The notes beneath the pieces are model-generated. The model searched no databases. It was given only the letters and a program-made list of their open reading frames with translations, and was not told the origin of the DNA. Shown here one piece after another: positions 745 through 3,923 of a stretch of 37,911 nt of DNA. Source of the stretch: Candidatus Cloacimonadota bacterium (GTDB taxonomy: Bacteria > Cloacimonadota > Cloacimonadia > JGIOTU-2); contig DAOVPZ010000001.1 in the NCBI GenBank assembly GCA_030628975.1, positions 1 to 37,911 on the forward strand, read 5' to 3'. Position 1 is the stretch's first letter. The number at the start of each line of letters is the position of its first letter. A program made the position numbers and the translations under genes.

Positions 745-846
745 GATTTTTTAATAATTTACTTTTTCTTGACAGGAAATTTTAATACTTAAAGAAGATA
801 TTTAAATTAGGTTCCACAGTAGCTCAGCGGTAGAGCAGGTGGCTGT

Positions 847-1403
847 AGGAAAATGAACTGATTGGTGATAAACGTAGTTACAGAGATAGAAGTGAATATT
901 TAATTGATGCTGTCCAGAAAAGAAGAAAGAAAATCCGACAAATGTCAATTGATTATAAAGGTGGACAATGTCAATTATGTGGATATGAAAAATGCCTGCA
1001 AGCTCTTGAATTCCATCATTTGGAATCATCTTGTAAAGATTTTGGGATATCGGATAAAGGTTATACTAGAAGCTGGAAAAAATAAAAGAAGAGCTTGATA
1101 AATGTATTCTACTTTGTGCAAATTGTCACTGTGAGGTTCACTCCGGACTGCAGCTTCCACGAGAAATCGTGGTTGAAAAATTGGGTGAATTCAGGGAAGC
1201 CTGCCCTTCACTTTAAGTGAAGAATGGTAATCCTGAGCCAAGTCCTGACTATATGTCGGGGAAGGTGCAGAGACTAGAGCTTCGGCTCGTACTCCGAACA
1301 GATTTCGGGGGAAGCGCCCAACACCCTACCTTTCTCCTGATAAATATCGGGATGGAACGGGTGATGAGATAGTCCAAGCCCAGGAGAAATTCTGGGGCAC
1401 TTG
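847..1403 (+). mobile_element. Group I (IC3-like) self-splicing intron inserted between anticodon positions 35 and 36
   Basis: The 5' exon ends in U (846) and the intron ends in G (1403). A candidate internal guide GCAGC (1150-1154) pairs with exon GCUGU (842-846), with a U-G wobble at the splice site. Core blocks TGAGCCAAGTC (1234-1244), GAAGGTGCAGAGACTAGAG (1261-1279) and GAGATAGTCCAAGCC (1366-1380) closely resemble conserved core segments of the Azoarcus tRNA-Ile and Anabaena tRNA-Leu introns as I remember them. Confidence 0.8.
849..1216 (+). pseudogene. Intron-encoded HNH homing endonuclease, frameshifted in an A6 run (1077-1082)
   Basis: Frame 0 (849-1085) reads ...RSEYLIDAVQKRRKKIRQMSIDYKGGQCQLCGYEKCLQALEFHHLESSCKDFGISDKGYTRSWKK*. 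Frame 2 continues (1082-1216) as IKEELDKCILLCANCHCEVHSG... Together these give the CxxC...HH...CxxCH HNH/zinc-finger pattern. No obvious ATG lies at the 5' end. The listed ORF 904..1098 is an out-of-frame artefact. Confidence 0.7.
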
Positions 1404-1424
1404 TAACCACTTTGTCGGGGGTTC

Positions 1425-1490
1425 AAATCCCTCCTGTGGAGCCATTTTACTCCTCATCCTTGCGAAGGTTTTAAACCTTCGCAAGGTTTA
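1425..1490 (+). repeat. Direct repeat copy 1 (tRNA-Asn T-arm/3' end plus terminator)
   Basis: aaatccctcc-[tgt]-ggagccattttactcctcatccttgcgaaggttttaaaccttcgcaaggttta recurs at 1883-1955. The only differences are tgt replaced by gccagttggc and one loop base. Confidence 0.9.
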
Positions 1491-3545: not shown

Positions 3546-3923
3546 ATGAGAAAAATTAGAAATTATGAATTATTCAAGGTTGCTCATTCATTAGTTTTAG
3601 ATATTTATAAAATTACTACTTATTTCCCCGATAGCGAAAGATTTGGTATTATTTCTCAAATGAGACGAGCTGCTTATTCAATTCCTGCAAATATCATTGA
3701 AGGGAATACAAAAGGAGAAAAGGAATTTATTCATTTTCTTAAAATATCTTTGGGCTCTTGTGAAGAATTAAGATATTTCCTTTTGCTTTCAAAGGATTTA
3801 CAGTATTTAAAGGAAAAGGATTTTGAAAAACTTGAAGAAAGAGCTTTATATGTAATTAAGATGATAAGATCATTAATAAAAAAAATTACAAAAGAAGATC
3901 TAACCAATGCTAAAAAACGCTAA
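3546..3923 (+). CDS. Four helix bundle protein (23S rRNA intervening-sequence protein family)
   Basis: Family-typical blocks are present: LVLDIYKITTYFP, RFGIISQMRRAAYSIPANIIEG, FIHFLKISLGSCEELRYFLLLSKDL. The size is ~125 aa. Confidence 0.85.
   Translation: MRKIRNYELFKVAHSLVLDIYKITTYFPDSERFGIISQMRRAAYSIPANIIEGNTKGEKEFIHFLKISLGSCEELRYFLLLSKDLQYLKEKDFEKLEERALYVIKMIRSLIKKITKEDLTNAKKR

Follow-up and report, generated by a model that had tools for sequence, protein, structure and literature searches.

Background

The classical group I introns of tRNA genes, those of subgroup IC3 in Azoarcus tRNA-Ile(CAU), Anabaena and plastid tRNA-Leu(UAA) and Agrobacterium tRNA-Arg(CCU), reportedly go back to the work of Reinhold-Hurek and Shub in 1992 and of Xu et al. 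in 1990. They interrupt the anticodon loop, draw helix P1 from anticodon-loop nucleotides, measure 200-250 nucleotides (nt) and carry no open reading frame (ORF). A bacterial anticodon-loop intron with a homing-endonuclease gene of its own is said to occur in tRNA-fMet of Synechocystis PCC 6803, where, according to the accounts ascribed to Biniszkiewicz et al. in 1994 and Bonocora and Shub in 2001, the intron encodes I-Ssp6803I, an enzyme targeting the intron-less tRNA gene. Intron-encoded homing endonucleases of the HNH type are known from phages, e.g., I-HmuI of phage SPO1. Here we describe a tRNA-Asn gene on contig DAOVPZ010000001.1, of which the whole stretch of 37,911 nt was analysed (hereafter the window), that is split by a group I intron with an HNH endonuclease ORF inside it.

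The four classical types of tRNA intron were expanded to 21 cases by Williams (2020; bioRxiv 10.1101/2020.01.27.920355), who also noted that protein genes may be found in introns longer than ~400 bp and whose seed alignment includes an entry named Pam37.Asn.4Ug. In the same seed alignment (bioRxiv 10.1101/2020.01.27.920355), an insertion between P7 and the 3' strand of P3 is modelled for Asn.4Ug, Lys.2Ug, Phe.2Ug and Leu.1Ug, and the preprint contains no description of an HNH gene, of its overlap with the ribozyme or of its decay. Apart from this source, our literature search surfaced no paper directly on tRNA-Asn group I introns. A preprint of 2025 about group I introns that interrupt tRNA genes in Patescibacteria, which we know from its citation in PMC12641178, concerns a different set of hosts, as the host here is not a member of Patescibacteria. 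Cyanobacterial "group I introns" of 22-49 nt in tRNA-Arg, -Gly and -Lys (PMC5733544) are too short for ribozymes and were set aside as irrelevant.

We are highly confident in reading the locus as a mobile group I intron of class Asn.4Ug, interrupting the only tRNA-Asn(GUU) gene detected, between its U35 and U36, and inherited vertically, in which the gene for the HNH endonuclease is decaying and the ribozyme is intact.

Results and discussion

The interrupted tRNA-Asn gene and its intron

When 813-846 (34 nt) and 1404-1444 (41 nt, CCA encoded) were joined, ARAGORN called a tRNA-Asn(GUU) of 75 nt with a 7-bp acceptor stem, discriminator G and encoded CCA, and on the unspliced DNA, with introns permitted, it called tRNA-Asn i(35,557). 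This bears out an earlier sequence-only reading, which had assembled a tRNA-Asn cloverleaf from exons 557 nt apart, had placed the insertion between anticodon nucleotides 35 and 36, and had named tRNA prediction on the spliced sequence as a check. With default settings ARAGORN found no tRNA anywhere in the window.

The Rfam covariance model Intron_gpI (RF00028), the other check proposed in that reading, matched 1129-1396 over full model positions 1-253 with 80.3 bits (E 1e-20; gathering score 50) when 700-1560 was searched with permissive filters, and a search of the host's 1.13-Mb assembly returned the same single match. A scan of the whole window against Rfam with default fast filters missed the intron, which is a filter artefact. 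The 5' exon ends with U846 and the intron with G1403. Exon GCUGU (842-846) finds its pairing partner in the guide GCAGC (1150-1154), so that a U846·G1150 pair stands at the 5' splice site, and P1 extends into the intron through A847-U1149 and G848-C1148; as the guide lies ~300 nt downstream of the 5' splice site, the ORF is in the loop of P1. At the other end, mapped members of the intron family read G|TAA(C/T)C, and the adjoining P9.0 covaries. The U|...G| splice rule, the guide and core segments of the Azoarcus/Anabaena type (GGTGCAGAGACTAGA at 1265-1279; GAGATAGTCCAAG at 1366-1378) had all been recognised in the sequence-only reading, and they stand. The only complement to the start of the 3' exon, GGUU (1131-1134), was rejected as a P10 candidate, being 15 nt from the guide and not conserved. 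We identify 847-1403 on these features as a group I intron, predicted to be of the self-splicing type. The helices given in Table 1 were drawn by hand from the RF00028 alignment and the sequence.

A tRNA-Asn host, insertion after the fourth nucleotide of the anticodon loop, a U in position -1 and a G as omega nucleotide place the intron in class Asn.4Ug. It agrees with Pam37.Asn.4Ug in host tRNA, site (35|36), U at -1 and terminal G, in the guide GCAGC, in the core blocks AAAUCGGGUGAAUUCA, CCUGAxCCAAGUC, GCAGAGACUA, AGCGCCCGA and GAUGAGAUAGUCC, and in an extra domain between P7 and the 3' strand of P3. However, the two are only 53% identical globally, since their peripheral hairpins differ, and Pam37.Asn.4Ug, which has no ORF, is entered in the seed alignment with 276 nt, a length that counts the exon-side strand of P1. 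The sequence-only reading had taken the combination of host, site and ORF to be unusual. That judgement does not hold, as the class was already catalogued in Williams 2020 and the HNH form was found in 79 of the best 80 loci of the species scan described below.

The core blocks resemble those of the classical IC3 introns, with close agreement in J6/7-P7 and P7-P9 (in the Williams seed alignment, GUAGAGACUA / AUAGUCC), but the classical introns lack the two hairpins between P7 and the 3' strand of P3, as well as differing in length, ORF content, host tRNAs and sites. The Synechocystis tRNA-fMet intron shares the anticodon-loop location and the possession of a homing-endonuclease gene, but sits in another tRNA and at another site, and its enzyme is of the PD-(D/E)XK type and not HNH.

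Table 1. Coordinates of the split tRNA-Asn gene, its intron and the ORF inside it (positions in the window)
Feature	Position	Strand	Details and evidence
5' exon, tRNA-Asn(GUU)	813..846	+	acceptor 5' strand, D arm, anticodon stem 5' strand, loop C U G U, ends U35; ARAGORN, contiguous with 3' exon in relatives
P1 5' strand (exon GCUGU + intron AG), 5' splice site after U846	842..848	+	pairs with 1148-1154; intron-side covariation, 73 members
Group I intron of class Asn.4Ug (U-1 / terminal G), length 557 nt	847..1403	+	ARAGORN, Rfam, covariation, seed alignment
HNH ORF, first part (frame 0, open from 849; ATT 861-863 in place of relatives' ATG; first ATG 942; stop TAA 1083-1085)	861..1085	+	
A6 run, where the reading frame breaks (A7 in L022)	1077..1082	+	
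HNH ORF, second part (frame open from 1070; IKEELDKCILLCANCHCEVH...; stop TAA 1214-1216 in P5a loop)	1082..1216	+	
Rfam Intron_gpI match, catalytic core	1129..1396	+	80.3 bits vs gathering 50
P1 3' strand / internal guide (CU-GCAGC), ~300 nt 3' of splice site	1148..1154	+	GCAGC in 73/76 members, paired with exon GCUGU in 68/73
P2 hairpin, GAAA tetraloop	1157..1172	+	compensatory changes in 6/6 pairs, 99.8% paired
P3 5' strand, partner 1315-1321	1181..1187	+	compensatory changes in 4/7 pairs, 98.4% paired
P4	1191-1196 / 1231-1236	+	pair counts in family alignment
P5	1199-1201 / 1226-1228	+	pair counts in family alignment
P5a hairpin	1206-1222	+	read from window sequence
P6	1238-1239 / 1264-1265	+	CC/GG to CG/CG switch
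P6a	1244-1249 / 1255-1260	+	compensatory changes in 4/4 pairs
P7 5' strand GACUA, partner UAGUC 1370-1374	1272..1276	+	4/5 pairs invariant in all 75 sequences, fifth in 74
Two extra hairpins between P7 and P3 3' strand	1277-1288 (UUCG loop), 1292-1310	+	read from sequence
P3 3' strand	1315..1321	+	family pair counts
P8, inner hairpin 1335-1352	1322-1326 / 1359-1363	+	compensatory changes in 4/5 outer pairs
P7 3' strand UAGUC	1370..1374	+	family pair counts
P9.0, enclosing P9	1376-1378 / 1400-1402	+	compensatory changes in 3/3 pairs
P9, GAAA loop	1379-1385 / 1390-1396	+	compensatory changes in 6/7 pairs
Terminal G (omega G), 3' splice site after it	1403	+	G before TAAC in all family members mapped
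3' exon, tRNA-Asn	1404..1444	+	U36, remaining loop, anticodon stem 3' strand, variable loop, T arm, acceptor 3' strand, G73, CCA; ARAGORN
Intrinsic-terminator-like hairpin 3' of tRNA	1458..1486	+	13-bp stem + T tract

Relatives with and without the intron

The stretch 790-1470 was compared by BLAST with the genomes of 100 relatives (the own genome, G000, counted; 19 same-family genomes among the others), 96 of which matched. In nearly all of them the two exons are directly adjacent, including three species of the same genus (G001-G003) and 15 of the 16 other same-family genomes, the sixteenth (G016) giving no match; none of the 99 other relatives, the 19 same-family genomes included, had a match to the intron. 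The order clpX, tRNA-Asn, small GIY-YIG ORF is conserved, both exons are identical or nearly so to those of the relatives, and the alignment breaks exactly at 846|1404. Contiguous exons in relatives and a break at precisely this point exclude a chance resemblance.

Two metagenome contigs carry the intron at the same locus. One of them (L022; ENA ERZ23498683, scaffold_271) is 98% identical to the window and departs from it at four places inside the intron, namely 951 G>T, an extra A at 1077-1082, 1130 T>C and 1284 G>A. The other (L103; JGI 3300019850) is 82% identical to the window, with the same figure for the tRNA-plus-intron region, shares the tig-clpP-clpX neighbours, and has an intron of 559 nt with an intact HNH ORF of 141 amino acids (aa). 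Between the window and this second contig, the first 96 HNH codons have a synonymous divergence (dS) of 1.02 and a ratio of nonsynonymous to synonymous divergence (dN/dS) of 0.09, and the C-terminal part of clpX gives a dS of 1.05 and a dN/dS of 0.07 (both Nei-Gojobori). Because the dS of the ORF is about that of clpX, we conclude that the intron diverged together with its host locus and was inherited vertically, with no recent intron exchange between the two lineages, and, from the low dN/dS, that the endonuclease was under purifying selection for most of their divergence. With 33% G+C in the ORF part and 30% around the gene, the composition of the ORF part is host-like, as it likewise is in other hosts, and also argues for a long residence of the intron. 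A very recent horizontal gain was rejected on this base composition together with the co-divergence with clpX.

It is possible, though we consider it rather unlikely, that the intron-less congeners reflect several losses of the intron and not one gain in a sub-lineage. Two of them (G001, G003), at 82-83% identity over the clpX flank, are about as distant from the window as the intron-bearing contig at 82%, and the host-like composition of the ORF part would suit an old resident. However, the absence of the intron from every other relative compared speaks for the single gain, which is also more parsimonious than repeated precise losses.

Probable dependence on splicing and constraint on the ribozyme

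The host assembly is a metagenome bin of 1.13 Mb in 154 contigs, with 31% G+C and an estimated completeness of 59.65%. At this completeness, ARAGORN found no further tRNA-Asn among its 28 tRNAs and BLAST found no other tRNA-Asn-like sequence, and congeners that are 96-97% complete have a single tRNA-Asn locus by BLAST. Given that no other tRNA-Asn was found in the assembly and that congeners have one locus, all tRNA-Asn of the host cell probably needs splicing of the split gene. The sequence-only reading had asked for a survey of the genome for other tRNA-Asn genes and had called splicing essential if this is the sole copy; with no second copy found in the 60%-complete assembly, we judge that claim reasonable.

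The ribozyme itself was examined in an alignment of the ribozyme halves of 75 family members, found by similarity to the HNH reading. Standard pairing was present in 96.6% of 3567 cells, as against 28-45% with the 3' partners slid by 1-3 columns, a comparison in which the structure, derived from one of the 75 sequences, is favoured over the slid controls. Changes on both sides were seen in 32 of 48 pairs (556 cells), and none of 500 shuffles attained the observed values, which, the 75 sequences being related, is a count and not a probability. P7 is nearly invariant and so uninformative for covariation. P1 covaries across the ~300-nt loop that bears the ORF: among 73 members, the first intron-side pair is A-U in 58, G-C in 7 and G·U in 6, and the second is A-U in 35, G-C in 20, C-G in 3, G·U in 3 and U-A in 1. 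Judged by these patterns, the structure of the ribozyme is under selection across a large family.

Of the 94 columns with a conservation of 90% or more, the window follows the family in all but one, i.e., in 93, and departs from it at U1243, just 5' of P6a, and its substitutions relative to the 82%-identical contig fall on 6 of 148 paired but 23 of 116 unpaired positions. The ribozyme in the window is accordingly scored as intact by sequence comparison while the nuclease gene beside it decays. This bears on the view that the interrupted gene is a dead allele which no longer splices, with tRNA-Asn supplied by another gene in the unassembled 40% of the genome. The incompleteness of the assembly and the decay of the endonuclease gene would be in keeping with it, but the ribozyme is without decay, with every drawn pair formed in the window, the substitutions avoid paired positions, the exons are perfect and agree with those of relatives at all or nearly all positions, the assembly contains no further tRNA-Asn-like sequence, and near-complete congeners have one tRNA-Asn locus only. 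We regard a dead allele as extremely improbable.

Lesions in the endonuclease gene

The ORF in the P1 loop encodes the motifs CxxC...HH...CxxCH..H. Its joined reading, for which one base of the A6 run is used twice, is 65-85% identical to at least 747 database proteins. The PHROG HNH family phrog_2255 was matched by the protein of the 98%-identical contig (E 8e-28) and by the closest relative, P0001 (E 1.5e-31), and the Pfam HNH domain (PF01844; cut-off 21.4) by P0001 with a score of 22.9 and by 14 of 20 relatives at E<=0.01, whereas the frameshift-joined reading of the window scored 14.3, below the cut-off. Among solved structures, the HNH motif of McrA (6ghc) comes closest, with weak support (E 0.023). 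Phage HNH endonucleases (phrog_2255 and relatives) are likewise small HNH nucleases with two CxxC pairs, but most look free-standing, and only the intron-borne form has the tail LQLPREIVVEKxGEFREA, since this is ribozyme sequence: the last ~22 codons of the ORF are the P1 3' strand, P2, P3 and P4, of which this conserved C-terminal tail is the translation.

Three lesions were identified. The first, ATT (861) for the ATG start of the family, is common to the window and its 98%-identical relative (L022), and the other two, A6 in place of A7 in the run 1077-1082 and R>C at 1130 in the HNH motif CANCHREVH, are found in the window only. The sequence-only reading had reported an HNH ORF in the P1-proximal part that is frameshifted in an A6 run, and the comparison agrees with it, as frame 0 and the frame open from 1070 overlap at the run and A7 in the relative makes one open frame. 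In the window CQLC, EFHH, CANCH and EVH are all encoded but split over two frames, so that the HNH residues and the two CxxC zinc pairs are not in one polypeptide; all four are intact in L022 and L103. Both HNH motifs lie in one frame in 72 of 76 sampled family members, among which intact ORFs are over-represented by the selection of loci through HNH-protein similarity. Taken at face value, the lesions mean that the endonuclease gene of the window is decaying, and the comparison with relatives suggests that selection kept the nuclease until recently.

An A6 run may also arise from a homopolymer error in sequencing or assembly, in which case the true gene would resemble that of L022, i.e., one open frame still without an ATG start. 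The single A is the only indel between the two inside the intron, errors are common in homopolymer runs, and the metagenome bin is fragmented into 154 contigs. R>C at 1130 in conserved CANCHREVH, which is likewise private to the window and lies in this gene, fits relaxed selection instead, and the two contigs differ by ~2% overall, as different strains between which true differences are expected. On balance we think an error unlikely, while counting it as a real possibility, and favour genuine decay.

A further view would have the endonuclease still made, starting at the rare ATT 861 or at ATG 942 and passing the run by a -1 slip of tRNA-Lys on AAA AAA or by transcriptional slippage, which would amount to a programmed low level of nuclease. 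AAA AAA immediately precedes the frame-0 stop TAA, a -1 slip would yield ...SWKK-IKEEL... with the length and sequence of intact relatives, and the 27 N-terminal codons upstream of ATG 942 are still open and conserved. However, the run is not conserved, being absent at the same place in L103 and in the family consensus and simply A7 in the sister strain; no downstream stimulatory structure other than the ribozyme itself is present; and three other sampled family members have the HNH motifs in different frames, as in ordinary decay. Programmed frameshifting at a run that neither L103 nor the consensus shares was judged unlikely, and continued production of the enzyme by any of these routes seems to us very improbable.

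Distribution of the intron

A scan of one genome per species, covering 185,579 species, gave at least 563 stretches encoding a relative of the HNH protein, of which the best 80 were examined. In 79 of these 80 the ORF lies inside a split tRNA in the arrangement GGCTGT|...G|TAACC; the 5' exon ends with CTGT in 79 of 79, and the called 3' end reads G|TAA(C/T)C in nearly all as well. When the spliced product was strictly required to be called tRNA-Asn(GUU) with a fully paired anticodon stem, 74 passed. The HNH-bearing tRNA-Asn intron is thus present in at least 79 further species from many phyla, with host labels including Nitrospira, Nitrospirae, Acidobacteriota, Elusimicrobia, Omnitrophota, Deltaproteobacteria, Clostridia, Acetothermia, Aerophobetes, Saccharibacteria, Falkowbacteria and others.

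With introns permitted, ARAGORN assigned 17 family loci to Thr, Tyr or Phe. These identities were rejected, as they stem from intron boundaries shifted by a few bases or, for one locus, from the choice of a wrong 3' partner, and all 17 read GGCTGT|...G|TAACC. The mislabelled loci, called Thr(UGU/CGU), Tyr(GUA) or Phe(AAA), include L025, L042 (the one with the wrong 3' partner), L050, L058, L064, L073, L075, L079, L080, L082, L083, L085, L089, L090, L092 and L094.

Viral contigs contain at least 574 HNH relatives. Among the best 80 viral loci only one clearly has the tRNA-Asn intron arrangement, and most other viral relatives look free-standing; with just this one locus, phages were rejected as the main carriers. 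The locus in question is 1468-2012 of the 22-kb viral-classed contig L104 (IMG/VR UViG 3300001199_000352), a tRNA-Asn with a 544-nt intron that includes an HNH ORF.

Proposed mechanism and weighing of the reading

In the mechanism that we propose, the tRNA-Asn gene would be transcribed as a 632-nt precursor, in which the guide GCAGC (1150-1154) would pair with the end of the 5' exon across the ~300-nt P1 loop and set a U·G pair at the splice site. Free guanosine would then attack after U846, G1403, placed by P9.0, would occupy the same site in P7, and ligation of the exons would give a normal tRNA-Asn. In relatives, the HNH enzyme would presumably cut intron-less tRNA-Asn genes and so drive copying of the intron into them, and a target as near-universal as the tRNA-Asn anticodon stem-loop would explain the spread over many phyla. 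The homing function is presumed from the use of the same site in many phyla, from presence and absence of the intron within a genus, and from the dN/dS of 0.09.

Several points weigh against the reading as a whole. The search for a P10 pairing with the 3' exon gave nothing convincing, and no sigma-70-type promoter was called upstream of the tRNA-Asn. A second, intron-less tRNA-Asn may sit outside the ~60%-complete assembly, the A6 run could be an assembly error and not a real lesion, and the selection of family loci by HNH similarity favours intact ORFs, as said above. The host is probably a member of Cloacimonadota, a phylum call whose sole basis is that the ClpX relatives bearing names, at 75-80% identity, are all from Candidatus Cloacimonetes/Cloacimonadota.

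We give little credence to the idea that the HNH gene is more than a selfish homing device, whether through maturase-like help in intron folding or through ribosomes translating P1-P4 that would gate splicing and so couple the supply of tRNA-Asn to translation. We retain it because, with vertical inheritance of the intron (dS equal to that of clpX), the ORF has been kept under strong purifying selection (dN/dS 0.09), and because its last ~22 codons, which are the P1-P4 strands of the ribozyme, are nearly invariant across phyla.

Implications for annotation and for the intron life cycle

Since default ARAGORN and a default Rfam scan both miss the split gene, genomes of this kind appear to be without a tRNA-Asn. 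Gene callers also produce spurious "proteins" whose reading runs on across the ribozyme as far as the 3' exon. Public proteins of 150-200 aa (P0015, P0035, P0002, P0006 and others) are the HNH ORF read through the ribozyme, with translated RNA blocks such as GEFREA, NGNPEPSP, GAETRA and GDEIVQAQ, and some end in ...CNH, i.e., UGU|AAC CAC in the 3' exon. These read-through extensions are gene-calling artefacts, and the conservation of the "protein" tail across phyla is conservation of the RNA.

Within one genus-level group, the locus offers a series of stages in the life cycle of a homing endonuclease, from the empty site (G001-G003) through an intact nuclease (L103) and loss of the start (L022) to the additional frameshift of the window, with the ribozyme under selection throughout the decay series. 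What is new here is minor, namely a host in Cloacimonadota, presence and absence of the intron within a genus-level group, and a series of nuclease decay beside an intact ribozyme. Knowledge of group I introns is unchanged, as the class, which is common in uncultured bacteria, had been catalogued by 2020.

Neighbouring elements

A small ORF for a GIY-YIG nuclease (~1543-1760) directly follows the tRNA-Asn in the window and in all close relatives (L011, L012, L014, L019, L103). In G001 (L014) there are apparently two GIY-YIG copies, and the 33 nt between them repeat the T arm and acceptor 3' end of tRNA-Asn exactly, a pattern that would be the trace expected of a cassette inserting at the 3' end of a tRNA gene.

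Further downstream, 1786-1909 is a GC-rich element that folds strongly, with a minimum free energy of -65 kcal/mol (z -5.1 against shuffles; 1780-1915 folded). It has no Rfam match and no ARAGORN call, and comprises an acceptor-like 7-bp stem, TCCGCCA/TGGCGGA, followed by GCCA, with a near-copy of the tRNA-Asn terminator on its 3' side. The syntenic stretch of G001 and G003 is without roughly 1795-1890, so that this looks like a second lineage-specific insertion beside the tRNA gene. Finally, an ORF with Pfam matches to 23S_rRNA_IVP / bAvd lies at 3546-3923 between two genes for branched-chain amino-acid ABC permeases, and is found likewise in L022.

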